Notes: generated by a model from the sequence alone, not told the origin. Shown: positions 6,185 through 64,000, counted from the first letter of the stretch. The stretch: 64,000 bases of DNA from an uncultured Bdellovibrionales bacterium (GCA_964500505.1 CAZCNN010000003.1:176-64175); one strand, 5' to 3'. Made by a program: numbers and translations.

Positions 6185-6308
6185 TTTCAGCTTTTTTAAA
6201 AAAAGTGGACCCTGTTAGAAAACTGTCAAAACCGCCTCCTAGTAATTTTCGGCTGTCAGTACCTGAGATATTCTCATATATCAAGTATCGTTGGCAGACT
6301 TCTAACGG

Positions 6309-6710
6309 GGTGGAGTTGATGGGAATTGCACCCATGTCCAGAGAAGTTTTTCCAAAATAGTCTACAAGCGTAGTCAACCTTGTGTACGGGCAGGAGGTAG
6401 AAGGGAGACAAAATCCTCAAGCGAGTTCTTCTTTTGCAATACGTTCGGAGGGTAAAAGAAAAAGAAATTCCCTGGTCACGTCTCGATAATATGACACCAG
6501 TGGTTCCTTACCGAGAATCAGGATACTGATGGCGTCGCCAGTAATTAGGCGAGCGCAAGACTGTAAGAAGGGGCAAAAGCTTGCGCGATTGCATTCTTGG
6601 TCTTTGTGATGAAGTTTGCATTTATCATCGTGAGAACGAGATTTACGACCGTGTTCTCAAGGTCGGCTTGCGTATTTTGAAAGTACAACCTGTCGAGTCT
6701 AAACAACCCC
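6309..6710 (-). ncRNA. ssrA: tmRNA (SsrA), one-piece; about 402 nt
   Basis: On the minus strand the 5' end GGGGUUGUUUAGACUCGACAGG matches the tmRNA 5' consensus (compare B. subtilis GGGGACGUUACGGAUUCGACAGGG). The 3' end carries a T-arm-like hairpin AUGGG-UGCAAUU-CCCAU, then CAACUCC-A-CC, which pairs with the 5' GGGGUUG and gives the diagnostic G3:U70 wobble. An internal tag frame GCA AAC ... CUU GCG CUC GCC UAA encodes ...SYSLALA*. The gene lies downstream of smpB. Confidence 0.7.
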
Positions 6711-11838: not shown

Positions 11839-13158
11839 ATGCAGTTCCTTATCATGCTGTTGATGGGACTCCTTACGGGGAGTGCCGTAGCGTACGAGAT
11901 GAACTCGGTACCTGACCAGTCGTTTGTGGCGCATCCGTGTGATCGCTACACCCGCTACTTTACGGAGTGCCTGCGACTGTATGAAGCAAGAGACCGAGCG
12001 CAAGCGGAGTCACTTCGCATCGTGCGGGTGGTGGATACTCGGGGTCGTGCTACTTTGGTACGCGAGTTCGTGCTCATTGCTTATGACCTCGAAGGGGAAG
12101 GATGGCACACCATCAGGCTCACGATGCCCCTGGTGGGGAATAGCACCTTTCAGCCGACGGTGCTCACGCCTGGGTATACGGTGCGTCGGATCAAGGGTCA
12201 GAGCTTCAACAAGATGTTTTTTCAGGTGACCTGGGCGGGACGTGAACTCCGGACCTATGGAGCGAAGCATCTCTCGCTTCCCGAGGACTTTCGGATCAAG
12301 CACCCGGATGCGATGACTCTCGAGGCCATAGAGGTGATCTATCTCTCGACACCCCCTCACCTCGTAAACCCCGAGTTTGTCCAAGCAGGGCAGGAGTTCG
12401 TCGTGAGGAAAACAGAAGAGGTACTGGCTGAACTTAAAGCGGAAGGAGTGCTGTCACGTGCTTATCCGGGCCGCCTCGTGTCAGCCGTCATCCATCCGTG
12501 GGTGCCACTTCACCTCGTCCTGGCTGAACAGGTTGACCCATGCCTCCTCAAGAGCCGTAGTCGCGTCTGTCAGCGGTTGATACCGGAGAACCCATTCCGA
12601 AGCGATGACGAAGTGATGCAGGCAGTGCTGACCGAGTTTGTCGTGAATGGCGAAGACGCCTTTCGCTATCTTGTCTCGAGTGGCAAGGCTCGGGGAGCGC
12701 TCCAATTCACCAACACCTATCGGGGCACAGCTCCCGGGACCTATGACATAGTGCGTCTTGCCTATCCACAGGCAGTGCTCGATCCTGATTTCCGGAGCGG
12801 GACTGAGGATTTTCGGAATAGCCTCAAGATGGCCATCCTCTTGATAGACATGGAGCTCGCGTATGGGAGCACACCAGCGTGGGTGCGCCAGGCGTTCCTC
12901 GAGGACTATCGACTGGGACTCCTCTGTCCGGCCGCCGCCTACAACGGTGGGGCGCAACAGTGTCGCAAGTTTGGGACACTGGTCGCTGAGTACCGGAGAG
13001 CACGGAGTCTCAGGGAAGTGACGTTTCATACGCTCACTGATGGCCATTTTCTCTCTTGGGTGGCACGGAGTCCCTGGGCCTTCAATCCGGAAACACACGT
13101 ATATCTCGAGAAGATTCTCCAGGTCTTCGGATCGGGACTCCTCCGAGAGACCAAGTAG
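11839..13158 (+). CDS. hypothetical secreted protein, GC-rich and Arg-rich, no recognisable domain
   Basis: Start at MQFLIMLLMGLLTGSAVA (signal peptide) preceded by a gaggag RBS. Local GC is visibly higher than in neighbouring genes. Confidence 0.5.
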   Translation: MQFLIMLLMGLLTGSAVAYEMNSVPDQSFVAHPCDRYTRYFTECLRLYEARDRAQAESLRIVRVVDTRGRATLVREFVLIAYDLEGEGWHTIRLTMPLVGNSTFQPTVLTPGYTVRRIKGQSFNKMFFQVTWAGRELRTYGAKHLSLPEDFRIKHPDAMTLEAIEVIYLSTPPHLVNPEFVQAGQEFVVRKTEEVLAELKAEGVLSRAYPGRLVSAVIHPWVPLHLVLAEQVDPCLLKSRSRVCQRLIPENPFRSDDEVMQAVLTEFVVNGEDAFRYLVSSGKARGALQFTNTYRGTAPGTYDIVRLAYPQAVLDPDFRSGTEDFRNSLKMAILLIDMELAYGSTPAWVRQAFLEDYRLGLLCPAAAYNGGAQQCRKFGTLVAEYRRARSLREVTFHTLTDGHFLSWVARSPWAFNPETHVYLEKILQVFGSGLLRETK

Positions 13159-13225
13159 GACACGCGGTTTTGTCACTGACAGACCGCTTTTTTCTTGCCC
13201 AAATTGCCCATGGTATGATGGGGGT

Positions 13226-14296
13226 ATGAATACGATCATCAAAGAAACTTTGGACCTGCTCCCGGGCGGACTCCTCATCACAGACTTGGATTCTCGGGTC
13301 CTCTATGCCAGTGCGGCGCTCGAACGTCGGACAGGTTTTGCGGTAGCGGAAATCGTCGGAAAAAAGCCAGGCGAGCTCTGGGGTGGTCGGATGCGGAAGC
13401 AGTTTTATACAGCACTCTGGCACACCATCGGCGGTGAGTGTCAGCCCTTTGTCGGTGAAGTAGCGAACACCCGGAAGAATGGCGCCAAGCATGACGAGCA
13501 CATCTATATCCTCCCTATCCGCGATGGTAGAGGCACTACCCGATACTTTGCCGAGGTCCATCCTGAACTCACCTCGAGAGAGAGCGAGCTCATGTTTGCT
13601 CATGAATTTCTCGGCCGGACCAAGGGTCAGTCTCAAGACGCTCCATTTTTCGACTGGCTGTTCACCCGTCTCGCTCGGAGAGAAAATGGGGAAACACGAT
13701 CATTCCCTGCGCTTGGTACCGATACGCTCATTGATCCCGCGACCTTTCTCTATCAGTCATTGATCCTCCCGACCGAACAGTTGTATGCTCGGCGACGTGA
13801 TGACGCACTCCTCATCGCTCGAGCCAAGGAAGACCCAGAGCAGTTCTCGGCCCTCTACAAGAAGTATGCCCCTTCGCTTCGAGAATATTTCTTGAAGCGT
13901 CTCTCTGGAGAGCGGATCTTGGCTGAGGATCTTCTCCAAGAGACGTTTCTCCGGGCCTTTCGTTATCTCCCGACGTTTCGCTCGGCCAATGCTTCGTACT
14001 ATACCTATCTCCTCCGGGTGGCGCACAGCGTCCTCGTCAATCAATTTCGGAAGGAACGATATGAAACGGTAGCGCTCACTGGGAACGAAGAAGAGAGAGT
14101 GGCTGAGGAAGGTCGGGTGTGGCCAGACCTCGAGTCTCTCCTCCTCAACCTGTCACCGCTTGAGCGTGAGATTATGCTCATGAAGTACCGAGATGGGCTC
14201 AAGGTGCGAGCTATCGCCACGGAGGTCGGGAAAAGCGAGAATGCGGTCAAATTGATTCTTTCCCGGACCCGGAAAAAGCTAAGAGTAAGGAGCTAG
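13226..14296 (+). CDS. PAS-domain / ECF-type sigma-70 fusion protein (N-terminal PAS, C-terminal sigma regions 2 and 4)
   Basis: The N-terminal roughly 120 aa has a PAS-like pattern (LLITDLDSRVLYASAALERRTGFAVAEIVGKKPGELW). The C-terminus has sigma region 2 (EDLLQETFLRAFRYL) and region 4 HTH (LSPLEREIMLMKYRDGLKVRAIATEVGKSENAVKLILSRTRKKLR). Confidence 0.7.
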   Translation: MNTIIKETLDLLPGGLLITDLDSRVLYASAALERRTGFAVAEIVGKKPGELWGGRMRKQFYTALWHTIGGECQPFVGEVANTRKNGAKHDEHIYILPIRDGRGTTRYFAEVHPELTSRESELMFAHEFLGRTKGQSQDAPFFDWLFTRLARRENGETRSFPALGTDTLIDPATFLYQSLILPTEQLYARRRDDALLIARAKEDPEQFSALYKKYAPSLREYFLKRLSGERILAEDLLQETFLRAFRYLPTFRSANASYYTYLLRVAHSVLVNQFRKERYETVALTGNEEERVAEEGRVWPDLESLLLNLSPLEREIMLMKYRDGLKVRAIATEVGKSENAVKLILSRTRKKLRVRS

Positions 14297-22260: not shown

Positions 22261-22983
22261 GTGGAACTCCGCTATAACGCTATTGTGCTCAGGAAGAAAG
22301 AGGTTGGTGAGACGGATCGGCTCTATACGCTGTATACCGAATCGGCCGGCAAATTGCAGTTGGTCGCGAAGGGCGTACGCAAGCCCGAGGCCAAGCTCGC
22401 CGGTCAGCTCGAGACCCTCATGCAGGGTCTGGTCATCGTGGTGAAGGGGCGGGGGGCTGGCAAGATCGCCGGAGCTGTGGCTGAAAAAAGTTACATCCAC
22501 CTCCGGAACAACCTCGATATCCTCCGCCGGACGATGGAGGCGGTGAGTATCTTTGAGCGCCTCGTGGGCTGGGAAGAACAGGACAAGGTTCTCTTTACTC
22601 TCCTTGGTGAGTACCTCGATATCGTGAATGATCTGGCGAAGGAGGGGAAAACTGACAAGGTTCTCCTCGTGACGGAGGGTTTCCTCTTTCAACTCTACGC
22701 CCATCTCGGCTACGAAATCGAGACGGGGATATGTGTAGTATCAGGGGAAAAACTCTCCACGGGGGAGCGGCACTTTTTTAGTCCGAGCGCCGGAGGCATC
22801 CTCAGGAGTGAGCACGCCCATACGACCCATGGTGCCCTCCCAGTGAGCGAGAGTGTGATCAAACTCATTCGACTGTTTCTCAAAAACAAATTGGTCACGC
22901 TTCCCAAGGTAGCGGTGTCGGCGGAGGATGTCCGTGAGGCACGGCGGGTAGCGACACGCTTTTTTCAGTGGATTGAGAGCTAG
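22261..22983 (+). CDS. recO: DNA repair protein RecO
   Basis: RecO N-terminal OB-fold signature (AIVLRKKEVGETDRLYTLYTESAGKLQLVAKGVRK). Length 240 aa. Confidence 0.8.
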   Translation: MELRYNAIVLRKKEVGETDRLYTLYTESAGKLQLVAKGVRKPEAKLAGQLETLMQGLVIVVKGRGAGKIAGAVAEKSYIHLRNNLDILRRTMEAVSIFERLVGWEEQDKVLFTLLGEYLDIVNDLAKEGKTDKVLLVTEGFLFQLYAHLGYEIETGICVVSGEKLSTGERHFFSPSAGGILRSEHAHTTHGALPVSESVIKLIRLFLKNKLVTLPKVAVSAEDVREARRVATRFFQWIES

Positions 22984-24973
22984 TTTCTTGCTACAATGGA
23001 AGAAACAAACCCCTATGGGACTCACCGAACTCAATGACAGACTGCATAGTCGAGACCTCCATCTCGATCGCACCCGCAAGCCGGACACTTTTCGTCCGGA
23101 GAGTGCTGTCGCCGATACTGATACCCTCGCTCAGTTTCAGAAGACCGAAGGCTGGGGCAATGAATCTTTGCCGTCCAAAGTCGACCTCGTGATTCCTGAA
23201 CCGGTGGAGGCCATCATCTCCTCCGATGATCGCGCCCGCAAGCGTCGCAAGACCCTGGCGATAGTCTTGGGTGGTGTGGCCGCGCTCCTTCTCATCGGAG
23301 GTATCCTCATGAAACTCCGGGCCAATATCTTTTCCCAGGACAACATCACACTCGAATTTACTGGTCCAGCTGATGTGGCTGGAGCCGAGCTCAGTACGTT
23401 TGATCTCGAGTACGCCAACACGAACTGGATGGGTATCGAAAACGCGACTCTCGTCTTTGAGTATCCGGAGACCTTTCGTCCAGAGCCGGCCCTCGGTCTC
23501 GATATCAAAAAGTCGCGAGCGGAACTCGCCGTAGGTGACGTCGCTTCCAATGCCCGGGTCAAAACCAAACTCTCCGGCAAGTTTTATGGCGCCAAAGGGG
23601 ACGAAGTCAAAATCGCCGTGACGCTCCGCTATAGTCCGAACAATATCTCGAGTAGTTATGAAAAGAAGGCAGAGCGCTCGGTCCGTATCGTCTCGTCGCC
23701 GATATTCTTTGAGATTGATGCTCCGTTTGAACTGACCTCCGACCAAGAAATTCAGTATGACATCCGCTATGGTAACCCGGGCGACATCCCATTTTCTGGT
23801 CTCAAGATAAAGCTTGAGTATCCAGCGGGGTTCATCTTTACCGGAGCGACCCCTCGTTCGACTGATCAGAAAAACGTCTGGGATATCGGAGCTCTGCCAC
23901 CTGGTGCAGAAGGTACCATAGCCGTGAGAGGCAGACTCACCGGATCACGTGATGAACAGAAATTAATCGAAGGAGGCATCGGAATCATTCAAGGCGATGG
24001 GACATTTGTCGCTTACGGTGAGAATCAGCGCAAGACCAAGATGGTGGCGTCGCCATTTTCTATCCGACAGTCTGTGAACGGTGCGACTGAGGGGGATGCC
24101 AACCCAGGTGAACCACTCCGCTATGATATTGAGTACCGCAATGATGGCAACGTCGGTATCCGTGATGCCATCGTGACCGTCGAGCTCGACTCACCGTTTC
24201 TTGATCTCGGGACGCTCCAGTTTGAAAATGACAACGTCAAAGGTGCCTATAGTCAGTCCCGCAAGTCGATTATCTGGAAGGCATCCGATGTGCCCTCACT
24301 CGCTCGCGTCGATCCGGGTCAGACGGGACGCCTCGCTTTTAGTGTAAAGACCTATCCCAACCCGGAGCAGGGTGTCGCCGGCGCGCGCAATCCCGTCGTC
24401 CGATCCATCGCCAAGATAGACAGTCCTGATATCCCGGCAATCGTCGGTGTGACCAAAGTCGTTGCGAGCAACACGCTTATCGTAAAGTTAAACACGATGC
24501 TCTCGAGTGACCTCCGGGGTTACTATCAGGATGCTCTCATCCCAAATACTGGTCCGATACCGCCACTCGTCGATCAAGAAACTACCTATACCCTCCATTT
24601 GGTCCTCGCCAATTCCTCAAACGAAATCAAGGACAGTCGTATGAGTGTCCTTCTCCCGAGTGGTATCCGCTATACCGGACAGACCAATGCTCCTGGCGAA
24701 AAGCTCTCCTTCAATGAACGGACCAATGAATTGGTGTGGGATATGGGGACGTTTGCCCCTGGTATCACCCGGCAGATTGTCTTCCAGGTGGGTGCGACAC
24801 CCGATGCCTCACTCGTCAACAAAGAAGTGACGTTCGTGAGCAAGATGGTGTTTACCGGCAAGGACGTATTTACTGAACGGGACCTCCGACTTGAAAAAGC
24901 TGGGAAAACGAGTAGTATTCCTGAGGATGCCTCGGTCCCTGACAGCGGGTACCGCGTCCGAGCCACCCCTTAG
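22973..24973 (+). CDS. membrane-anchored large protein with DUF11/CARDB-like beta repeats (cell-surface)
   Basis: One TM (LAIVLGGVAALLLIGGILM) followed by repeated segments of the pattern ...RYDIEYRNDGNVGIRDAIVTVELD... / ...TYTLHLVLANSSN... The start may be the internal Met at 23015. Confidence 0.5.
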   Translation: MRASFLLQWKKQTPMGLTELNDRLHSRDLHLDRTRKPDTFRPESAVADTDTLAQFQKTEGWGNESLPSKVDLVIPEPVEAIISSDDRARKRRKTLAIVLGGVAALLLIGGILMKLRANIFSQDNITLEFTGPADVAGAELSTFDLEYANTNWMGIENATLVFEYPETFRPEPALGLDIKKSRAELAVGDVASNARVKTKLSGKFYGAKGDEVKIAVTLRYSPNNISSSYEKKAERSVRIVSSPIFFEIDAPFELTSDQEIQYDIRYGNPGDIPFSGLKIKLEYPAGFIFTGATPRSTDQKNVWDIGALPPGAEGTIAVRGRLTGSRDEQKLIEGGIGIIQGDGTFVAYGENQRKTKMVASPFSIRQSVNGATEGDANPGEPLRYDIEYRNDGNVGIRDAIVTVELDSPFLDLGTLQFENDNVKGAYSQSRKSIIWKASDVPSLARVDPGQTGRLAFSVKTYPNPEQGVAGARNPVVRSIAKIDSPDIPAIVGVTKVVASNTLIVKLNTMLSSDLRGYYQDALIPNTGPIPPLVDQETTYTLHLVLANSSNEIKDSRMSVLLPSGIRYTGQTNAPGEKLSFNERTNELVWDMGTFAPGITRQIVFQVGATPDASLVNKEVTFVSKMVFTGKDVFTERDLRLEKAGKTSSIPEDASVPDSGYRVRATP

Positions 24974-52584: not shown

Positions 52585-52614
52585 TATTTATGACAGATAC
52601 TTTCTCTTTTTTAT

Positions 52615-52644
52615 CAAAAAATCACTGAGACGAGTGATTTTTTG
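52615..52644. terminator. bidirectional intrinsic terminator between convergent parB (+) and manC-like (-)
   Basis: aaaaaa-tcactgagacgagtga-tttttt. Confidence 0.75.
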
Positions 52645-52655
52645 ATACACAGTGT

Positions 52656-54078: not shown

Positions 54079-54792
54079 ATGGCAGGAGGGGAAAATTTTG
54101 AAATATTCGCCCCCGAAACGGAGAAGGGCTGGCTCCAAAAAATCGGGCGGAAAAATATCATCATCCTTGTCGTAATCTTACTCCTCTTGGGGGGAGGGGG
54201 GTATGCTTTTTTTTCTTGGAACCAGAACCGTGGGAGCGTCGTGGAAACTCCCCAGGTAGCGACACCAACGACCAAAACCAGCCTGCTCCAGGGGAGCACA
54301 CCGGAACAGACGACGAGTCCTGAGGTCGCTCTCTTTGGTGACGCCAATTTCCAGAGTGAAAACTTCCGGGTCGGTGATATCTCCATCGGAGGTGAAGCCG
54401 AGTTCCTCCTCTCCGAAGACAATCCGGATCCGCTCGAAGTGAGTTCGATCAGAGGTGAGGCCTTTACGGAAAAAAACAAGCAGGAGGTCAAGCTCGTGGT
54501 GAGTTGGCGGACCAATAAACTGGCCAAGTCGACCATTTTGTATTCGAAGGGTGTGGGTCAGGCCAAAAAGAGTGTTTCGGAAGAGGATTACAGCCTGAAT
54601 CACAGCATTATCATCCCGGGTCTCGATCAGGCTTCGACCTATGTCTACGAGATCGTTTCCGAAGACCGCTACGGGAGCCAGGTGACGAGTGAATCGCATG
54701 CGGTGTACACGGGCTCGAGATCAGTGTCACTCTTTGATTTGATTGCCAATGCCGTAGGTGAAGTTTTTGGCTGGGCTGTAACGAAAAAATAG
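54079..54792 (+). CDS. hypothetical membrane-anchored protein
   Basis: One TM (IIILVVILLLLGGGGYAFF) then a Ser/Thr-rich extracytoplasmic region. It lies immediately upstream of the giant gene. Confidence 0.45.
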   Translation: MAGGENFEIFAPETEKGWLQKIGRKNIIILVVILLLLGGGGYAFFSWNQNRGSVVETPQVATPTTKTSLLQGSTPEQTTSPEVALFGDANFQSENFRVGDISIGGEAEFLLSEDNPDPLEVSSIRGEAFTEKNKQEVKLVVSWRTNKLAKSTILYSKGVGQAKKSVSEEDYSLNHSIIIPGLDQASTYVYEIVSEDRYGSQVTSESHAVYTGSRSVSLFDLIANAVGEVFGWAVTKK

Positions 54793-54848
54793 CTTGGGAA
54801 ATACGCAAGATTATGATAAAATATAAGAGATATTCGGTGTAAAAAGTC

Positions 54849-57800
54849 ATGCCGTTATATGTAAAAAACAAAAAACGAAAAACAGCATATAGCTCTTTGG
54901 CCACCGCACTGGTGGTAGGGGCGCTCGTACTAGGGTGGTTAGATCTACGACCCAGTTTTGCGCAGTCCACGGTCAACCAAATCGAGCAAATTAGCCTCTC
55001 CGCATCGCTTTTTGGCAAGGATAATCGCATTATCAAGAACGGTACCTACCAGGTGCGTTTTGTTATCTACGCGACTGATCGCGCTACCGCGGATCCTTAC
55101 CCATCGAACACCGACACTCGCATTTGGGAGGAAACACAGGAAGTGACGGTGAAGGGCGGTATGTTCCGCACCTTTCTCGGGTCCGTGACGCCACTGCCGG
55201 CGAGTCTCAACTTTGAAACGGGGAGCTACTACGTCGGTATCCGTATCGGGACGGATTCGGAAATGGTTCCTCGGAAAAAATTGGGATCAGTGCCGCGAGC
55301 TATCAATTCGCAATTTTTGCAGGGACGGAGTATCGGGACCAAACTAGGAGATATACCGCTACTCGGTAAGGGTGGCAAAGTAGATATCAAAAACCTACCG
55401 ACTGGAACAGGTCCGAAGCAGTTGGTCCTGGGCAATGACTCGCGGCTTGGTGATGCTCACCAACAAAACACGGACATTGGGACTGATTCAGAAGTGTTCA
55501 ACATCGGCTCGGGAACAGCGCTCTCTGGGACCAACTTTGATCTCACGGTATCAAGCGCTGCGACTGCTCCGGCCCTTCGCTTCAATGGCACGACTCAGGC
55601 CTGGCAGTTGTCAAACGACGGGACGACGTTTACCGACATTGGCTCTGGCAGTAGTGGACCGATTACTCTCGGGACGGATACGGATGGGAACTATGTGGCG
55701 AGTGTCGCTGATGGCGACGGCATCTCCGGTGGTTCAGCTGGGAGTGAGGGGGCAGCGCTGACCCTTGGTATCGACCTCCTCGATTCTGCCGATGGCACCG
55801 GAGCCACTTCAAGTAACTCGGGCTTCGAGTTTGGTGGTGCCGGCTCGGATGAACTCGCTCTTCTCCAAGGGTGTTCCAATGGTCAGGGTATCGCTTGGAA
55901 TGACACGACCAATGTGTGGGAGTGCACCAGTTTTTCAGCTGGCTTGGCAGGGAGTGGGAGTACCGGTTATGCCACCTACTGGAGTGGCACGAGCGCTCTC
56001 GGGTCCGAAGCCTATCTCCATCCGGTCCGTGGCGGTACCGGACTCGATGCCTCTTCGGCCAGTAATGGTTCGCTACTCATCGGCAACGGGAGTGGCTTTA
56101 GCTTGAACACTTTGGCTGGTGGGACAGGTGTCTCGGTCACCAATGGTTCTGGTGTTATCACTCTCGGTATCGATGCGACCACGAGCGGGACGACGGCGGT
56201 CACCTCGTCAAACTCTGGTATCGAAGCAACCGCGAGTGGCATCCGGCTCCTCGGTGGGTGTAGCAATGATCAGGTACTCGCATGGAATTCGGGATCGAGT
56301 GTTTGGGTCTGTTCTAACAAGAGTGGCGGGACGAGTGACTGGACTAGTACTGGATCGCTCACTTACCTCACCGATGTCAATGATGATCTCGTCATCGGTG
56401 GTACAGCGGTGGACGAGGGATTTGTCTTTGATGTTTCGGCTGGGACACTGTCGTTTGAGGGTAGTTCAGCCAATGGTTTTGAGACGGCTATCGGTGTCAT
56501 CAACCCGACCGCGGACAATGCTATCAATTTCCCAGATGTTTCTGGGACGGTGGTGACGACCGGCAACCTCACTGACATCACGGCCGTCGGGACGATTGCG
56601 TCAGGTACGTGGAACGGCTCGGTAATCGGGACGACCTATGGTGGGACTGGTGCGAGCTCGCTTAATAACTTGATTGCGCTCGGGACACACACCACTGGGA
56701 ACTATGTCGCCTCTGTCGGAAACGGGAACGGTATCACTGGTGGGGCCACTGGTTCTGAAGGAGGAACACTGACTCTTGGTATCGACCTCCTCGACAGTGC
56801 CGATGGCACAGGGAGTACCTCAAATAACTCTGGTCTTGAATTTCAGGGGGCTGGCTCAAATGAACTCGCTCTGCTTCAGGGTTGTGCCAACAACGAAGTC
56901 CTCTCATGGAATGATGGCTCTAGCGTATGGCAGTGTGCGTCGGTGACGGGTGTTGGTGGTATCGACGGGACTGGCTCAGCCAATGCGGTCGCGTATTGGA
57001 CCGACTCGAATACCCTTACGTATGAAGCAGAGCTCTCCGTCTCCCGTGGTGGTACCGGTATCGGCTCCTACACCATCGGTGATCTCCTCTATGCCTCAGG
57101 GAGTGGTACTCTCTCAGCACTCGCTGATGTGGCAACAGGTAACGTCCTCATCTCAGGAGGCGTCGGTATCGCTCCATCATGGGGTAAGGTCAACCTCACT
57201 ACCGCAGTCTCAGGAACGCTCCCAGTCGGAAACGGTGGTACGGGAGCCACTTCGCTCAATGATCTCATTACCCTCACGACTCACACCACCGGTAACTACG
57301 TCCAGTCCATCACCAATGGTTCTGGTATCTCAGGAGGCGATGGTGGCAGTGAAGGAGCAGCTCTCACTCTCGCCCTTGGCGCACTCTCCGCTGACTGGAA
57401 CCAAACCGGTGCGTTTGATATCTCTCTTAACAATGCCTCCTCAGAACTCAAGATTCTCGAATCAGCCGGAGCCACCTTCTTCGGTATCTTTGATGTGGCA
57501 GACCTCTCCAGTGCTGATAAGACGTATACGTTTCCGAATGCCTCTGGTACCGTTATCACTACTGGTAACCTCACTGATATCACGACGGTAGGAACAGTCG
57601 TCTCTGGTACTTGGAATGGTACGGCTATCGGAGCTCAGTATGGTGGGACGGGGATCAATACTTCTGCTTCAACAGGGGTGCCAGTTATCTCCTCTGGTAC
57701 ATGGAGCGTCGCTTCGCAACTAGGTGTTGCTCAAGGTGGGACCGGAGCAGCAACACTCACCAGTAACGGTGTCCTCTATGGCAATGGTACGAGTGCCATC

Positions 57801-60800
57801 CAAGCGACGACCGCCGGGACTGATGCTCAACTCCTCGTCGCCAATGGTAGTGGTGTCCCTGTCTTTGTCTCAATGAGTGGCGATATCACTATTACCAACG
57901 CAGGTGTGACGACGATTGGTGCCAATACGGTGGCTCTCACGACGGATACGACGGGGAACTATGTGGCTTCGGTCGGCAATGGTAATGGTATTACCGGTGG
58001 CGCTGCTGGGTCAGAGGGCGCAACTCTTACCCTAGGTCTTGATCTCCTCGACAGTGCTGACGGCACAGGCGGTACTTCTTCAAATTCAGGTCTCGAGTTC
58101 CAGGGGGCTGGCTCAAATGAACTCGCTCTGCTTCAGGGTTGTGCTAACAATGATGTGCTCGCGTGGGTAGATGCCTCCAATACCTGGGCCTGTACCAGCG
58201 TCGGGGGTGTGGGAGCTGGTGACATCACCGCTATCGGTGATGTGACGAGCGGCGCTGCTTTCGATGGGACGCAGGGGACGCAACTTATATTCAATGATGT
58301 TGATGGCGACGGCACACTCACGATAGCGAACCTCTCAGCTATCCGCACGTGGACCCTCCCTGACACAACAGGGACGCTGATTACCACGGGGGACACTGGC
58401 ACGGTGACGGGGACAATGATTGCTGATAACACTATTGAAGAAGTTGATTTTGAAGCCACGAATAGTCCAACCAATGGCTATATATTGTCATATGACAATA
58501 CCACGGGAGGCTTTACCTGGATTTCCAATACAGGCGGATCTGGGTCGTCCAAGTTTACTGACTCGGGGACAATTACCTATCTCACTGACACGACTGACGA
58601 CCTCGCTATTGGTGGCTCCACCTCGAATGCCTCCAAGTTCTTCTTTGATGTGAACACGGGTAACCAGATTATCTTTGAGGGCACTGGGGCTGATGATGCC
58701 AATGAGACAACGCTGGTGATTACCAACCCGACGACTGATAAAACGATTACTTTTGCAGATGCTTCTGGAACCGTTATCCTCTCTGGCCATACCTTTTCGA
58801 GTGATGTGACGGGGACACTTGGGTCCGGTGGGTCCACAGCTCTGACCATAGCATCTGATAGTGTAGCGCTTGGGACCGATACTACCGGGAACTATGTCTC
58901 CTCCGCTACCTCAAACGGTGGCCTCACCCTCACTGGCACCGAAGGAGCCTCTCTCGGTATCCTCCTCCCATCCGCTACTAATGGTCTCTCTGCCACGACC
59001 TCCTCTGGCTCAGGTCTTGAACTGACCTCAAGTGGCCTCTCACTCCTCCAGGGTTGTGCTGACAATGAAGTCCTCTCATGGGATGAAGCGGCTGACGTCT
59101 GGAAGTGTAACAGTGTGGGTGGTGTCGGTGCCGGTGATATCACCGCGGTAGGTAACGTCACGAGTGGTGCCGCCTTTGATGGTACCGCTGGTACTGAGCT
59201 GTACTTTAATGATGTGGATGGTGATGGTCTCCTCACGATTGCTAATCTCTCAGCCGCTCGGACGTATACATTGCCTGACGCTTCTGGTACCGTCGCGACG
59301 ATTAACGGCGGCCAGACGTTTACCAGTGCTACATGGAATGCGACGACTATCGCGGTCGCGTATGGTGGTACCGGTGCTACCACTCTCACCAGTAACGGTG
59401 TCCTCTATGGCAATGGTACGAGTGCCATCCAAGCGACGACCGCCGGGACTGATGCTCAACTCCTCGTCGCCAATGGTAGTGGTGTCCCTGTCTTTGTCTC
59501 AATGAGTGGCGATATCACTATTACCAACGCAGGTGTGACGACGATTGGTGCCAATACGGTGGCTCTCACGACGGATACGACGGGGAACTATGTGGCGAGT
59601 ATCACTGCAGGGAGTGGTGTCTCCGGGACAGTGGCAAGTGAAGGTGCTACGCCGACACTCGATGTGGATCTCCTCGACTCGGCTGATGGAACCGGTGGTA
59701 CCTCGAGTAACTCTGGTCTTGAATTTCAGGGGTCAGGAAGTGATGAACTGACTTTGCTTCAGGGATGTTCAAACAATCAGCTTCTTCTCTGGAATGACAG
59801 TACCAATGTCTGGTACTGTGGTTCTGTTTCTGGTGCGGGCGGTATCGATGGTGCTGGGGCGACTGGTCAGGTGGCCTACTTTACCGATGCCGATACTCTT
59901 TCATCCGAAGCAGAGCTCTCCGTCTCCCGTGGTGGTACCGGTATCGGCTCCTACACCATCGGTGATCTCCTCTATGCCTCAGGGAGTGGTACTCTCTCAG
60001 CACTCGCTGATGTGGCAACAGGTAACGTCCTCATCTCAGGAGGCGTCGGTATCGCTCCATCATGGGGTAAGGTCAACCTCACTACCGCAGTCTCAGGAAC
60101 GCTCCCAGTCGGAAACGGTGGTACGGGAGCCACTTCGCTCAATGATCTCATTACCCTCACGACTCACACCACCGGTAACTACGTCCAGTCCATCACCAAT
60201 GGTTCTGGTATCTCAGGAGGCAATGGTGGCAGTGAAGGAGCTGCTCTCATTCTCGCGCTTGGCGCACTCTCCGCTGACTGGAACCAAACCGGTGCGTTTG
60301 ATATCTCTCTTAACAATGCCTCCTCAGAACTCAAGATTCTCGAATCAGCCGGAGCCACCTTCTTCGGTATCTTTGATGTGGCAGACCTCTCCAGTGCTGA
60401 CAAGACGTATACGTTTCCGAATGTTTCGGGCACAGTAGCTACGATTGATGGTGGTCAGACCTTTACTAGTGCTACGTGGAATGCCTCCACGCTCACGGTC
60501 GCCTATGGCGGTACGGGTGCCACCACTCTCACCCCGAATGGTGTCCTCTACGGTAATGGCACGGGTGCGGTGCAGGCGACGAGCGCTGGTACCAATGGCC
60601 AGCTTCTCCTCGGTGTCTCGTCGAGCGCCCCAGTGTTCGCGACGATGTCCGGTGACGCTACCATCAATAATTCTGGAACAGTGACGATTGCCAGTAACGC
60701 TGTTGCCCTGACTACCGATACGACCGGGAACTATGTCTCTTCCGCTACGAGTAACGGCGGTCTCACCCTCACTGGTACCGAAGGTGCCTCTCTCGGCATC

Positions 60801-63800
60801 CTCCTCCCAGCCGCAACGGACGCTCTCTCATCGACGACCTCCTCTGGATCGGGTCTCGAGCTGACCTCAAGTGGCCTCTCGCTCCTCCAGGGTTGTGGTA
60901 ATAATGAAGTGCTTTCCTGGAATGAGACCTCTGATGTCTGGGCCTGCTCTTCTGTTTCTGGAGTGGGAGGTGTGACCGGGACTGGTGCTACCAATCAGGT
61001 GGCGTACTGGACCGGTACGTCGACACTGGCTGGCGAGAATCAGTTGAGTGTGTCACGAGGAGGGACCGGAGCAGCCACACTCACCAGTAACGGTGTCCTC
61101 TATGGCAATGGTACGAGTGCCATCCAAGCGACGACCGCCGGGACTGATGCTCAGGTGCTGGTCGCCAATGGTAGCGGTGTCCCTGTCTTTGTCTCGTTGA
61201 GTGGTGATGTCACTATCACCAATGCTGGTGTGGCAACTATTGGTGCCAATACCGTGGCTCTCGGTACTGATACCACCGGGAACTATGTGGCAACGCTCAC
61301 CTCCGGAAATGGTATCTCAGCAACTGCGACTGGTGAAGGCTCAACCCCGACTATCGCTCTTGGCGCACTCTCCGCTGACTGGAACCAAACCGGTGCGTTT
61401 GATATCTCTCTCAACAATGCTTCCTCAGAACTCAAGATTCTCGAATCATCTGGAGCGACCTACTTCGGTATCTTGGATGCTGGTGATCTCTCAGCAGATC
61501 GGACTTATACGCTGCCTGATGCAAGTGGTACAGTTGCCCTAACCTCTGATATTCACAGTGCCGTGACATTGTCCGGAGAGAACTATCTCTCGCTTGCTGG
61601 TCAGGTCATCACAGCTAATGCGGTCAATCTCTCTGGAACCAATGTAGCCGGAACACTGGCAGCTGCTCGTTTTGGGACGCTTACGGGAGATGTGACGACT
61701 GCAGGAGGGAGCTATGCGACAACTATTGCAGCAGATGCGGTCGCGCTCGGGACTGATACGACTGGGAACTACGTCTCTTCCGCTACGAGTAACGGCGGTC
61801 TCACCCTCACTGGTACCGAAGGTGCCTCTCTCGGTATCCTCCTCCCATCGGCAACAGACGCTCTTTCATCGTCGACTTCCTCTGGATCGGGTCTCGAGCT
61901 TCTCTCGGCAGGACTGACACTCCTTCAGGGTTGTGCTAATGATCAGGTTCTCGCGTGGAATGAGACGGCAGATACGTGGGCCTGTTCTGACAAGACCGGT
62001 GGAACCAGTAACTTTACTGATAGTGGTACGGTGACGTATCTCACTTCGACGACGGATGACTTTGCACTCGGTGGGACTGGCGTCGATGTATCATCGTACT
62101 TCTTCGATGTCTCTGCCGGGACAATTCAATTTGAAGGTACGAGTGCCGACGCTAATGAAACCACCCTGGTCGTGACCAATCCGACAGCTGACCAGACCAT
62201 AACCTTTGCAGACGCTTCCGGTACCGTTATCCTCTCTGGACATACTTTCTCTGGTGATGTGACTGGTACTCTCGGAACCGGTGGGACCACCGCTCTCACC
62301 ATTGCTTCCGACAGTGTGGCGCTTTCTACTGATACCACCGGTAACTACGTCCAGTCCATCACCAATGGTTCTGGTATCTCAGGAGGCAATGGTGGCAGTG
62401 AAGGAGCTGCTCTCATTCTCGCGCTTGGCGCACTCTCCGCTGACTGGAACCAAACCGGTGCGTTTGATATCTCTCTTAACAATGCCTCCTCAGAACTCAA
62501 GATTCTCGAATCAGCCGGAGCCACCTTCTTCGGTATCTTTGATGTGGCTGACCTCTCCAGTGCTGACAAGACGTATACGTTTCCGAATGCCTCTGGTACC
62601 GTTATCACTACTGGTAACCTCACTGATATCACGACGGTAGGAACAGTCGTCTCTGGTACTTGGAATGGCACGGCTATCGGAGCTCAGTATGGTGGGACGG
62701 GGTTGAATGGCTCTTCCGCCGCCAACGGTACGCTCCTTATCGGCAACGGAAGCGGTTATACGCTCGCCACCTTAACCGATGGAACGGGTATTACTATCAC
62801 TGAGGGATCAGGTACGATTTCGATTGCTTCTACTCTCGGAACAGACATCTCCGGATCAGAAATTGTTGACGGTACTATTGAAGAAGTAGACCTCGAAGTG
62901 ACCAATTCACCAGTGGGTGGATATGTCCTCACCTATGACTCAGGTACTGCCGGCTTTACCTGGGTAGATGGTGGAGGACTTGGTAATTCCAAATTCACTG
63001 ACTCCGGAACCTTTACCTATCTCACCAACACAGGCGATGACTTGGGTATCGGTGGTTCAACACTTACCTCTGCTCGTTACGTGTTTGATGTGAGTACCAC
63101 TGGTAATACCATCTCCTTTGAGGGCACTGGTGCTGATGATGCCAATGAAACAGCCCTCGTGGTGACTAACCCGACGGGAGACCGGACGATTACACTGCCG
63201 GATTCCTCCGGTACGGTCCTCCTTACTGGTGGTACCCTCCTCACTCTCGCTGGTACGAGCGGTTCTAACCAAACCATCTCTCAGGGTGACACGATTACTA
63301 TCGCCGCTGGGACCGGTATCACCACAACGGGTGGCACGACGGATACGGTAACCATCGCCAGTACTCTCGGCACTGCTATCGATACGACTGAAATTACTGA
63401 TGGCACGATTCTTGAAGTTGATCTGAATGCCACCAATGCCCCCGTTGATACCTATATCCTTTCGTACGATAACGCGTCTGGAGGCTTTACCTGGATATCG
63501 AATACCGGTGGTTCAGGGGCGTCCAAATTCACCGACTCTGGCACCATTACCTATCTGACCAATACAACTGATGATCTCGCTATTGGTGGCTCCACCTCGA
63601 ATGCCTCCAAGTTCTTCTTTGATGTGAACACGGGTAACCAGATTATTTTCGAAGGTACCGGTGCTGATGATGCCAATGAGACAACGCTGGTGATTACCAA
63701 TCCGACTGCCGATCGAACGCTCACTCTTCCGAACCTGACTGGCACGATTGCGACCATCGATGGAGCACAGACCTTTACCTCTGCTACTTGGAATGGTACG

Positions 63801-64000
63801 GCTATCGGGGCACAGTACGGTGGGACAGGGATCAATACCTCGGCCTCGACCGGTGTCCCAACCATTTCCTCGGGAACGTGGAGTGTCTCGGCTCAGCTCT
63901 CAGCTCTTCGTGGTGGCACCGGTGTGGATGGGTCGGCAGCGTCAAACGGTACTCTCCTCATCGGGAATGGCTCTGGCTATACGCTTGCCAATCTCACCGG
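54849..64000 (+). CDS. giant modular cell-surface protein, partial (>3050 aa, open at window end); Gly/Thr/Ser-rich repeats with conserved two-Cys module
   Basis: Frame 0 is open from the ATG at 54849 to the window end, which is why the ORF track misses it (it has no stop). N-terminal TM or signal MPLYVKNKKRKTAYSSLATALVVGALVLGWL. Repeated units of the form ...TDTTGNYVAS...SEGAxLTLGxDLLDSADGTG.TSSNSGLEFQGAGSxELALLQGCxNNxVLxWN...VWxC... A spot-check of the frame at 58128 and at 63900 gave consistent repeat peptides. Confidence 0.8.
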   Translation, partial: MPLYVKNKKRKTAYSSLATALVVGALVLGWLDLRPSFAQSTVNQIEQISLSASLFGKDNRIIKNGTYQVRFVIYATDRATADPYPSNTDTRIWEETQEVTVKGGMFRTFLGSVTPLPASLNFETGSYYVGIRIGTDSEMVPRKKLGSVPRAINSQFLQGRSIGTKLGDIPLLGKGGKVDIKNLPTGTGPKQLVLGNDSRLGDAHQQNTDIGTDSEVFNIGSGTALSGTNFDLTVSSAATAPALRFNGTTQAWQLSNDGTTFTDIGSGSSGPITLGTDTDGNYVASVADGDGISGGSAGSEGAALTLGIDLLDSADGTGATSSNSGFEFGGAGSDELALLQGCSNGQGIAWNDTTNVWECTSFSAGLAGSGSTGYATYWSGTSALGSEAYLHPVRGGTGLDASSASNGSLLIGNGSGFSLNTLAGGTGVSVTNGSGVITLGIDATTSGTTAVTSSNSGIEATASGIRLLGGCSNDQVLAWNSGSSVWVCSNKSGGTSDWTSTGSLTYLTDVNDDLVIGGTAVDEGFVFDVSAGTLSFEGSSANGFETAIGVINPTADNAINFPDVSGTVVTTGNLTDITAVGTIASGTWNGSVIGTTYGGTGASSLNNLIALGTHTTGNYVASVGNGNGITGGATGSEGGTLTLGIDLLDSADGTGSTSNNSGLEFQGAGSNELALLQGCANNEVLSWNDGSSVWQCASVTGVGGIDGTGSANAVAYWTDSNTLTYEAELSVSRGGTGIGSYTIGDLLYASGSGTLSALADVATGNVLISGGVGIAPSWGKVNLTTAVSGTLPVGNGGTGATSLNDLITLTTHTTGNYVQSITNGSGISGGDGGSEGAALTLALGALSADWNQTGAFDISLNNASSELKILESAGATFFGIFDVADLSSADKTYTFPNASGTVITTGNLTDITTVGTVVSGTWNGTAIGAQYGGTGINTSASTGVPVISSGTWSVASQLGVAQGGTGAATLTSNGVLYGNGTSAIQATTAGTDAQLLVANGSGVPVFVSMSGDITITNAGVTTIGANTVALTTDTTGNYVASVGNGNGITGGAAGSEGATLTLGLDLLDSADGTGGTSSNSGLEFQGAGSNELALLQGCANNDVLAWVDASNTWACTSVGGVGAGDITAIGDVTSGAAFDGTQGTQLIFNDVDGDGTLTIANLSAIRTWTLPDTTGTLITTGDTGTVTGTMIADNTIEEVDFEATNSPTNGYILSYDNTTGGFTWISNTGGSGSSKFTDSGTITYLTDTTDDLAIGGSTSNASKFFFDVNTGNQIIFEGTGADDANETTLVITNPTTDKTITFADASGTVILSGHTFSSDVTGTLGSGGSTALTIASDSVALGTDTTGNYVSSATSNGGLTLTGTEGASLGILLPSATNGLSATTSSGSGLELTSSGLSLLQGCADNEVLSWDEAADVWKCNSVGGVGAGDITAVGNVTSGAAFDGTAGTELYFNDVDGDGLLTIANLSAARTYTLPDASGTVATINGGQTFTSATWNATTIAVAYGGTGATTLTSNGVLYGNGTSAIQATTAGTDAQLLVANGSGVPVFVSMSGDITITNAGVTTIGANTVALTTDTTGNYVASITAGSGVSGTVASEGATPTLDVDLLDSADGTGGTSSNSGLEFQGSGSDELTLLQGCSNNQLLLWNDSTNVWYCGSVSGAGGIDGAGATGQVAYFTDADTLSSEAELSVSRGGTGIGSYTIGDLLYASGSGTLSALADVATGNVLISGGVGIAPSWGKVNLTTAVSGTLPVGNGGTGATSLNDLITLTTHTTGNYVQSITNGSGISGGNGGSEGAALILALGALSADWNQTGAFDISLNNASSELKILESAGATFFGIFDVADLSSADKTYTFPNVSGTVATIDGGQTFTSATWNASTLTVAYGGTGATTLTPNGVLYGNGTGAVQATSAGTNGQLLLGVSSSAPVFATMSGDATINNSGTVTIASNAVALTTDTTGNYVSSATSNGGLTLTGTEGASLGILLPAATDALSSTTSSGSGLELTSSGLSLLQGCGNNEVLSWNETSDVWACSSVSGVGGVTGTGATNQVAYWTGTSTLAGENQLSVSRGGTGAATLTSNGVLYGNGTSAIQATTAGTDAQVLVANGSGVPVFVSLSGDVTITNAGVATIGANTVALGTDTTGNYVATLTSGNGISATATGEGSTPTIALGALSADWNQTGAFDISLNNASSELKILESSGATYFGILDAGDLSADRTYTLPDASGTVALTSDIHSAVTLSGENYLSLAGQVITANAVNLSGTNVAGTLAAARFGTLTGDVTTAGGSYATTIAADAVALGTDTTGNYVSSATSNGGLTLTGTEGASLGILLPSATDALSSSTSSGSGLELLSAGLTLLQGCANDQVLAWNETADTWACSDKTGGTSNFTDSGTVTYLTSTTDDFALGGTGVDVSSYFFDVSAGTIQFEGTSADANETTLVVTNPTADQTITFADASGTVILSGHTFSGDVTGTLGTGGTTALTIASDSVALSTDTTGNYVQSITNGSGISGGNGGSEGAALILALGALSADWNQTGAFDISLNNASSELKILESAGATFFGIFDVADLSSADKTYTFPNASGTVITTGNLTDITTVGTVVSGTWNGTAIGAQYGGTGLNGSSAANGTLLIGNGSGYTLATLTDGTGITITEGSGTISIASTLGTDISGSEIVDGTIEEVDLEVTNSPVGGYVLTYDSGTAGFTWVDGGGLGNSKFTDSGTFTYLTNTGDDLGIGGSTLTSARYVFDVSTTGNTISFEGTGADDANETALVVTNPTGDRTITLPDSSGTVLLTGGTLLTLAGTSGSNQTISQGDTITIAAGTGITTTGGTTDTVTIASTLGTAIDTTEITDGTILEVDLNATNAPVDTYILSYDNASGGFTWISNTGGSGASKFTDSGTITYLTNTTDDLAIGGSTSNASKFFFDVNTGNQIIFEGTGADDANETTLVITNPTADRTLTLPNLTGTIATIDGAQTFTSATWNGTAIGAQYGGTGINTSASTGVPTISSGTWSVSAQLSALRGGTGVDGSAASNGTLLIGNGSGYTLANLT

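Follow-up and report, generated by a model that had tools for sequence, protein, structure and literature searches.

A giant modular gene of a Candidatus Moranbacteria genome, probably encoding a Sec-exported cell-surface fibre expanded by recent cassette duplication

Architecture and Coding Status of the Giant Gene

The DNA analysed here, a stretch of 64,000 nucleotides from an assembly deposited as an uncultured Bdellovibrionales bacterium (GCA_964500505.1, CAZCNN010000003.1:176-64175) and called the window below, ends inside a single giant gene. From an ATG at position 54849 its reading frame runs for 3050 codons without a stop and continues past the window edge. The translated protein is dominated by Gly (15.8%), Thr (15.5%), Ser (11.2%) and Ala (10.2%), which sum to 53% of its residues. 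All 16 of its cysteines fall in eight C-x16-C pairs with a spacing of exactly 17 residues, and every pair lies inside an LLQGC...W.C motif (in full, ...LLQGC(A/S)N..(V/L)L.W......W.C...). The initial annotation had described a single open frame of at least 9.15 kb, a recurring two-Cys unit and a giant tail-fibre- or adhesin-like product. The first two are borne out by these counts, and the third agrees with the predicted extracytoplasmic location of the protein and with the homology of one of its module types to phage tail-fibre proteins. The parts of the gene are as follows.

54849..64000, plus strand: 5' part of the giant putative fibre gene, 3050 codons, open at the window end
54849..54959, plus strand: predicted signal peptide, residues 1-37, with n-region KNKKRK, an h-region of about 20 aa and a probable signal peptidase I (SPase I) site SFA/QS
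54863..54882, plus strand: A6-C-A6-CG-A5 runs, within the Lys/Asn/Arg codons of the signal-peptide n-region
54960..55658, plus strand: family-defining N-terminal domain, residues 38-270, whose core (residues 45-145) is a predicted beta-sandwich
55671..63974, plus strand: module array of 33 or more short modules, each 45-95 aa long and assigned to one of 8 recognisable types
Residues 342/359, 471/488, 679/696, 1098/1115, 1403/1420, 1640/1657, 2016/2033 and 2362/2379: the eight Cys pairs

The array occupies residues 275 to 3042 and consists of related, Gly/Thr/Ser-rich module types in the order A-A-D-g-A-B-C-g-b-A-e-F-D-A-e-b-A-B-C-b-A-b-C-A-D-C-g-F-D-F-D-g-g. These modules were called with profile hidden Markov models built from the giant protein itself and cover 85% of residues 275-3050. 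The Cys pairs are carried by the eight A modules, one C-x16-C pair each. Searches of Pfam, NCBIfam and PDB sequences with the 3050-aa protein, and with its continuation in a related contig (L006, described below), gave no match above threshold. No Ig-type repeat family was found in the window protein at the Pfam cut-off, and a profile of the D module had no match in the PDB.

Two older module copies, 58506-58732 and 63480-63706, differ by 24 synonymous and 2 non-synonymous codon changes. Because such older copies differ mostly at synonymous sites, the gene is best read as a coding sequence under purifying selection and not as a decaying pseudogene.

Predicted Signal Peptide and N-terminal Domain

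The AlphaFold2 (AF2) model places a helix at residues 8-32. The h-region is followed by P-S-F-A and then Q-S, and a small-x-A site followed by Q or A recurs in those family members that have an N-terminal signal-type sequence. The protein had been annotated as carrying an N-terminal anchor; an N-terminal hydrophobic segment is indeed present, but it is more likely a cleavable Sec signal peptide, with the cleavage site placed by inspection.

The same region had been proposed to support slipped-strand phase variation, which would make this a contingency gene switched by mispairing at three A5-A6 runs that lie within 20 nt at codons 5-12. The tracts are A6, A6 and A5 in the window and in L002, L003 and L004, that is, in four independent assemblies with zero length variation. 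They are the AAA/AAC Lys/Asn codons of KNKKRK, an n-region conserved as protein in homologues, and they are short, the contingency tracts known so far usually measuring at least 8 nt. On these grounds the proposal was rejected, and we regard switching at these runs as extremely improbable.

Downstream of the signal peptide, an AF2 model of residues 1-600 has confident structure limited to the signal helix and the beta-sandwich at residues 45-145 (pLDDT 70-88). Comparison of the N-terminal model with the PDB by Foldseek gave no significant neighbour, and Pfam yielded no match for the N-terminal domain.

Near-identical Cassettes within the Gene

Repeats were compared by self-blastn, by codon-level comparison and with a 31-mer map of the window, and the following blocks were delimited.

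57022..57540, plus strand: block X, a B-C cassette, repeated at 59905-60423 (offset 2883), differing at 7 of 519 nt and exact over 315 nt
59905..60423, plus strand: block Y, the copy of X, seen in self-blastn, codon comparison and 31-mer map
62328..62702, plus strand: block Z, a C-g cassette, matching 57279-57653 (offset 5049, 97.6%)
62328..62589, plus strand: part of block Z, matching 60162-60423 at 98.9%
57735..57967, plus strand: 'b' module block, matching 59364-59596 (offset 1629, 97.4%, 215 nt exact)
59364..59596, plus strand: copy of the 'b' module block, seen in self-blastn, codon comparison and 31-mer map

In-frame blocks of 215-519 nt are thus repeated at 97.6-100% identity, and all repeat offsets in the gene are multiples of 3. 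Repeats of such length and identity cannot have arisen by chance. The blocks are whole cassettes (B-C, C-g and b) whose edges coincide with module borders, and the end points of the X/Y pair differ from those of the X/Z pair, so that each copy is a patchwork. Altogether repeated 31-mers cover 2,564 nt of the gene, with one run of 494 nt made of overlapping repeats; in the rest of the window the only repeated 31-mers are one small overlapping pair at 956-993, with an offset of 7 nt. From this pattern we infer that the near-identical blocks are recent, in-frame, module-bounded duplications or gene conversions, and the mosaic end points suggest unequal recombination or gene conversion among homologous modules instead of one simple tandem duplication. 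The possibility that the gene is the target of a diversity-generating retroelement was considered and rejected, there being no adenine bias between repeat copies and no reverse transcriptase among the open reading frames (ORFs) scanned with Pfam.

Near-identical intragenic blocks of 200-530 bp, and cassette-like recombination or gene conversion as their source, had been put forward in the initial annotation. The self-comparison of the DNA reproduced the blocks, and the recombination is supported by blocks that follow module borders, by end points that vary from pair to pair and by a module number that differs between relatives. The pairings given there were right overall, but two were 6-9 nt off (57762 pairs with 59391, and 62330 with 57281). 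A pair of off-frame ORFs said to be duplicated (57089-57277 and 59972-60160) is so, lying inside a 100% identical block at offset 2883 as a trivial consequence of the duplication.

Relatives, Full Length and Repeat Order

With residues 1-275 as query, an exhaustive search returned 5,829 cluster representatives when the cut-off was set at E<=1e-3; at E<=1e-10 there were 397, and at E<=1e-30 there were 115. Queries shorter than the whole protein otherwise list matches up to about 1.75 times their own length, and the giant relatives therefore all stem from this exhaustive search. This large family has neither a name nor Pfam coverage, and no description of it was found in the papers searched. Many of its members are giant (2,084 to 5,603 aa), and the complete ones share the same ends, namely the signal peptide with the N-terminal domain and a conserved C-terminus (...SRIFT.FK.NP..F.W.EK....Y.GF.I......V.VDW.L.E.K.). 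Between these ends the relatives vary: L016, complete on a single 10.6-kb contig, has 2,358 aa and 5 modules, and P0224 has 2,908 aa and 12 modules, while at least 33 are already present in the window protein. L006, L001, L016 and P0224 differ in how many modules they have and in what order.

In five other members of the family (P0304, P0323, P0328, P0346 and P0085) the conserved N-terminal domain sits 180-600 residues into the chain and is preceded by an N-terminus resembling a helix-turn-helix/MerR-excisionase domain, which in P0085 matches PF12728, PF00376 and PF13411. Such a beginning is unexpected for a surface fibre.

The continuation of the gene beyond the window can be followed in L006 (CAZGHY010000039.1), a 7.6-kb contig that consists of one ORF of the giant gene and is deposited in an 'uncultured Gammaproteobacteria' metagenome-assembled genome (MAG); it almost certainly represents a mis-binned related strain. 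Entirely open, it shares the last 60 nt of the window exactly and is 82-95% identical in matching segments. It was the only hit when exact 60-mers were used to scan for the window's continuation, and an exact 40-mer scan of metagenome contigs found nothing. Because L006 continues for 1,467 residues past the window end and P0061 adds the last 66, the full-length protein extrapolates to about 4,580 aa. The remaining 1,500 or so residues would comprise GNVGIGT-type motifs, a coiled coil spanning about 120 aa and, at the very end, a beta domain that is conserved. In the region that the two share, L006 reads C-b-A-B-C-A-D-C-D-g-g and the window C-b-A-b-C-A-D-C-g-F-D-F-D-g-g, and thus module content varies even among close relatives.

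A syntenic homologue in a closed Moranbacteria genome (CP064975.1; L001:10001-22403) is split into four consecutive genes (800, 2168, 236 and 2185 aa), two of which are tandem copies, near-identical to each other. At the first junction, the one that was inspected, the frame shifts at C/G runs; judging by it, sequencing errors have probably broken up a single gene of at least 5,400 aa.

When the C-terminal region of the relatives, which lies outside the window, is made into a profile, it matches weakly (E=5.3e-4), through GNVGIGTxxP..L.V, the fibre Bd2133 (8OND), one of the mosaic adhesive trimer (MAT) fibres of Bdellovibrio bacteriovorus (Caulton et al. 2024, PMC10769870). The coiled coil predicted in the same profile gives weak matches to trimeric fibres (reovirus sigma-1 and P22 gp26). 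Near the C-terminus of two distant members with the same N-terminal domain, P0229 and P0259, there is a Peptidase_S74 domain, which is an intramolecular chaperone; PF13884 had no match in the window protein or in L006. P0068, a relative of the C-terminal region (632 aa), begins with an intein C-terminal splicing motif (PF14890), followed by Peptidase_S74 and the same terminal domain. The C-termini of the complete relatives, ending ...VDWLLIEQKETNLP or ...VDWWLVEQKDTAPVTP, contain no LPXTG motif. An LPXTG-anchored giant adhesin was rejected as an explanation on this ground and because tandem Ig-like or Pfam-recognised repeats were not found.

The repeats also affect how the gene assembles.

56844..56887, plus strand: the gene's first exact repeat of 31 nt or more, with its partner at 58101-58144; short-read contigs break here

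Two independent k=31 assemblies of the same strain (L002 and L003) stop at window position 56873, exactly at the first repeated 31-mer, and a third stops at 56692; the risk of assembly collapse raised earlier for this gene is thereby substantiated. Because the repeats break short-read assemblies, nearly all database homologues are 'partial'. The proteins of the window map to an NCBI contig of 67,234 bp, which most likely also ends inside the giant gene. All of this would suit a reading in which the repeats do exist but assembly, through collapse, expansion or a strain chimera, has partly produced their order and copy number, so that the recombination pattern would not be that of any one genome. 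The extent of the repetition (about 2.5 kb in repeated 31-mers, exact repeats of up to 315 nt and the 494-nt overlapping run) points in the same direction. However, the frame stays open through every junction with all offsets in multiples of 3, the contig L006 comes from another sample and is largely collinear, and the homologues L016 and P0224 are complete on single contigs. The open frame and the independent contig argue against gross assembly error, and we give a partly artefactual repeat order a minor, though not negligible, chance.

Phage-like Module and Genomic Setting

One module type links the giant protein to tailed phages.

57030..57257, plus strand: phage-tail-fibre-like module B, copy 1, residues 728-803, with SYTIGDLLYASG...LADVATGNVLISGG...APSWGK...GGTG
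59913..60140, plus strand: phage-tail-fibre-like module B, copy 2, residues 1689-1764, on the same evidence as copy 1

Over 68-76 aa, module B shares 75% identity with UOF78414.1, an annotated tail fibre protein of siphovirus MW202545.1 whose gene adjoins a Peptidase_S74 tailspike-like gene, and 82% with P0192, a 276-aa protein encoded in a 52.5-kb phage contig (L009) with capsid, adaptor, S74 and lysozyme genes. Its AF2 model (pLDDT 68) has two beta-hairpins and finds 18 Caudovirales proteins in BFVD at E<=1e-3, among them Mtd-N, Stf-repeat and intramolecular-chaperone proteins. A further Gly-rich module type, at residues 2600-2680, matches PHROG 31660 'tail fiber protein' (E=1.3e-8). At the DNA level module B is about 70% identical to the phage genes, which suggests a shared, strongly conserved module and not a recent transfer.

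These matches, together with Peptidase_S74 in relatives, are what a prophage, tailocin or otherwise phage-derived tail-fibre gene would be expected to yield, as opposed to a gene for a cellular surface protein. Against such an origin stand the DNA identity of only about 70%, a signal peptide in place of a virion-attachment N-terminus, and the surroundings of the gene. A Pfam scan of ORFs found no phage gene in the 55 kb upstream, which instead hold housekeeping genes: tmRNA, several aminoacyl-tRNA synthetases including LeuRS, NrdD, F-type ATP synthase, GlmS, FolD, tRNA-Leu, ParA, ParB and ManC. Other Moranbacteria species, moreover, have the same locus next to parAB, and genes for FG-GAP or LamG surface proteins come after the giant gene in relatives. 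A phage-derived gene is accordingly very improbable here.

As to the carrier, nearly every homologue of residues 1-500 bears the name Candidatus Moranbacteria/Moraniibacteriota or Parcubacteria, and a sequence near-identical to the LeuRS of the window is deposited as Candidatus Moraniibacteriota. Judged by these sequence comparisons, the carrier is a chromosome of Candidatus Moranbacteria (Patescibacteria, also called the Candidate Phyla Radiation, CPR), here an uncultured bacterium of ultra-small size.

Two features lie immediately upstream of the giant gene.

54079..54792, plus strand: upstream partner gene, 237 aa, with one transmembrane (TM) helix and an FN3-like (Pur_ac_phosph_N-like) domain
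54794..54822, plus strand: promoter-like site, sigma-70-like TTGGGA-17-TAAAAT with an extended -10 TG, predicted by consensus scan

The FN3-like assignment of the 237-aa protein reflects a weak Pfam match (PF16656, E=4e-4). The protein is encoded directly upstream of the giant gene in the window and in two further species-level loci, L016 (59% identity) and L001 (53% identity), and is absent from that position in L017.

The neighbourhood is not constant. In another sample of the same strain group (L012:2021-6014), parB and manC are separated by genes for a 23S_rRNA_IVP protein of 161 aa and a Laminin_G_3 protein of 1149 aa, where the window has only a 71-nt spacer (52585-52655); in CP064975.1 the giant gene is preceded by an 842-aa Laminin_G_3 gene, itself downstream of parB. 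The surroundings of parAB look like a variable surface-protein island. In a close relative (L008:2649-11310) the giant gene is directly followed by a gene for a 2028-aa FG-GAP repeat protein and by another of at least 810 aa, an arrangement in which several very large surface proteins are clustered. Elsewhere in the window, a 666-aa protein with a DUF11 repeat (22973-24973, plus strand) is another probable cell-surface protein, a 418-aa ORF (13040-14296, plus strand) combines PAS domains with sigma-70 regions 2 and 4 as a sensor-sigma factor fusion, and a tmRNA gene (6308-6710, minus strand) has the predicted tag ANFITKTKNAIAQAFAPSYSLALA.

Interpretation

We consider it likely that the gene encodes a giant, Sec-exported cell-surface fibre of Candidatus Moranbacteria that was expanded by recent cassette duplication. 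A role in adhesion or host recognition may be proposed, and the host attachment in an episymbiont that the initial annotation suggested is likewise conjectural. In such a scheme the chains would be exported unfolded, the C-terminal coiled coil or terminal domain would nucleate a trimer, and the module array would zip into a long rod resembling a tail fibre. Holding this rod at the cell surface would fall to the N-terminal domain, perhaps together with the conserved TM/FN3-like protein encoded upstream, while the distal end of the rod touches a host cell or another surface. Through cassette duplications or gene conversions the array would have grown (three relatives have 5, 12 and at least 33 modules), and fibre length and module order would have changed between lineages.

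Several points weigh against the fibre interpretation. It derives from sequence and predicted structure; the C-terminal part comes from a contig obtained in another sample (82-95% identical) and not from this genome; and the repeat order in the window is that given by the assembly. Peptidase_S74 was not detected in the closest relatives, L006 and P0224, and no recognised cell-wall anchor (LPXTG or S-layer homology) was found. To our knowledge Moranbacteria have no cultured member, and the episymbiotic host is itself an assumption.

A different function for an exported protein of this kind would be that of a structural envelope or S-layer-type component, such as a coat, spacer or glycoprotein matrix without specific adhesion, in which the repeats only set the length. 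A content of 53% in Gly, Thr, Ser and Ala is what glycosylated envelope proteins typically show, the family occurs widely and has a conserved position next to parAB, and the Pfam search detected no lectin or other binding domain in the window part of the protein. The homology to phage receptor-binding fibre shafts and the resemblance of the C-terminal profile to the MAT fibre Bd2133 speak for a fibre instead, and the strong variation in modules between relatives is easier to reconcile with an interaction protein that diversifies than with a lattice protein. A purely structural role thus seems unlikely to us.

The fibre reading can be taken further, to a counterpart of the MAT fibres in Moranbacteria and related Patescibacteria: a trimeric host-recognition fibre, similar to a phage tail fibre and more than 4,500 aa long, whose length and module order are re-dealt by frequent in-frame recombination, with cassettes drawn in part from a pool shared with phage fibres. 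This extension is speculative and we hold it to be rather doubtful; if true, it would give unculturable episymbionts a recombination-driven way to change their reach and host range. We know of little about host recognition and attachment in Patescibacteria outside the type IV pili of Saccharibacteria, and the MAT-like layout, combined with a module common to phage receptor-binding fibres, makes the giant protein a candidate, concrete and open to test, for a structure by which Moranbacteria would contact a host. In addition, the gene is a clear case of protein lengthening through recent cassette duplication, and a gene family systematically broken in short-read assemblies will be under-counted in MAG-based surveys.

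Comparison with Known Systems

There is a likeness in layout to the MAT family, in which a signal peptide is followed by a beta-rich N-terminal domain, conserved and about 130 aa long, and then by a trimeric beta-helix fibre whose tip is of the S74 or the non-S74 kind (PMC10769870). The giant protein has a similar order of parts (signal peptide, beta-rich N-terminal domain, long putative fibre, and a C-terminus with or without Peptidase_S74), and its carrier likewise comes from a group whose members are believed to live on other bacteria. In contrast, MATs measure about 1000 aa, whereas the giant protein has at least 3050 aa (about 4,580 when extrapolated) and an array of at least 33 modules; trimerisation has been seen for MATs, whereas the giant protein is known here as a sequence; and S74 is missing from the closest relatives of the giant gene. 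The cell envelopes may differ as well, CPR bacteria being usually described as single-membraned, unlike the MAT carrier.

Tailed-phage fibres that carry the SYTIGDLLYASG...LADVATGN...APSWGK module share it with the two copies of module B in the window, and distant members of the family end in Peptidase_S74, a point of likeness to S74-type tail fibres or endosialidases. The giant gene differs from such phage proteins in its chromosomal housekeeping context, outside any phage structural gene cluster, in having a signal peptide and not a virion-attachment domain, and in a product three to five times longer; most of its modules (A, C, D and F) were not found in phage records.

Very large surface proteins in a small CPR genome are also known from Vampirococcus lugosii, where predicted surface proteins of 1392-4163 aa were proposed to form a fibrous coat and to attach to the host (PMC8080830). 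Compared by description, those proteins carry PKD, DUF11, integrin, fibronectin and WD40 domains, whereas the giant family has no Pfam domain. The hypervariable repeat gene of Gracilibacterium BD1-5, whose repeats broke assembly and needed manual curation (PMC6851277), is similarly a surface-protein gene of a CPR bacterium; its product has a TM or signal segment at the N-terminus, and its internal repeats disrupt assembly. There, however, the repeat is a 9-nt microsatellite encoding the tripeptide PTD with synonymous hypervariation, while here modules of 135-290 nt are duplicated as cassettes.

Giant Gram-positive adhesins, among them Ebh/Embp, a 7651-aa adhesin of Mobiluncus (PMC10619420) and Giant1-5 of Apilactobacillus (PMC12863079), resemble the present protein in reaching thousands of residues, in being extracellular and in growing through internal domain duplication. 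They are strings of Ig-like or helical domains, whereas no Ig-type repeat family was detected in the window protein and the C-termini of its relatives lack LPXTG. Many giant Gram-positive adhesins are LPXTG-anchored. Across these comparisons the logic of the giant gene matches kinds that are already known: MAT fibres, phage fibres and giant repetitive adhesins.

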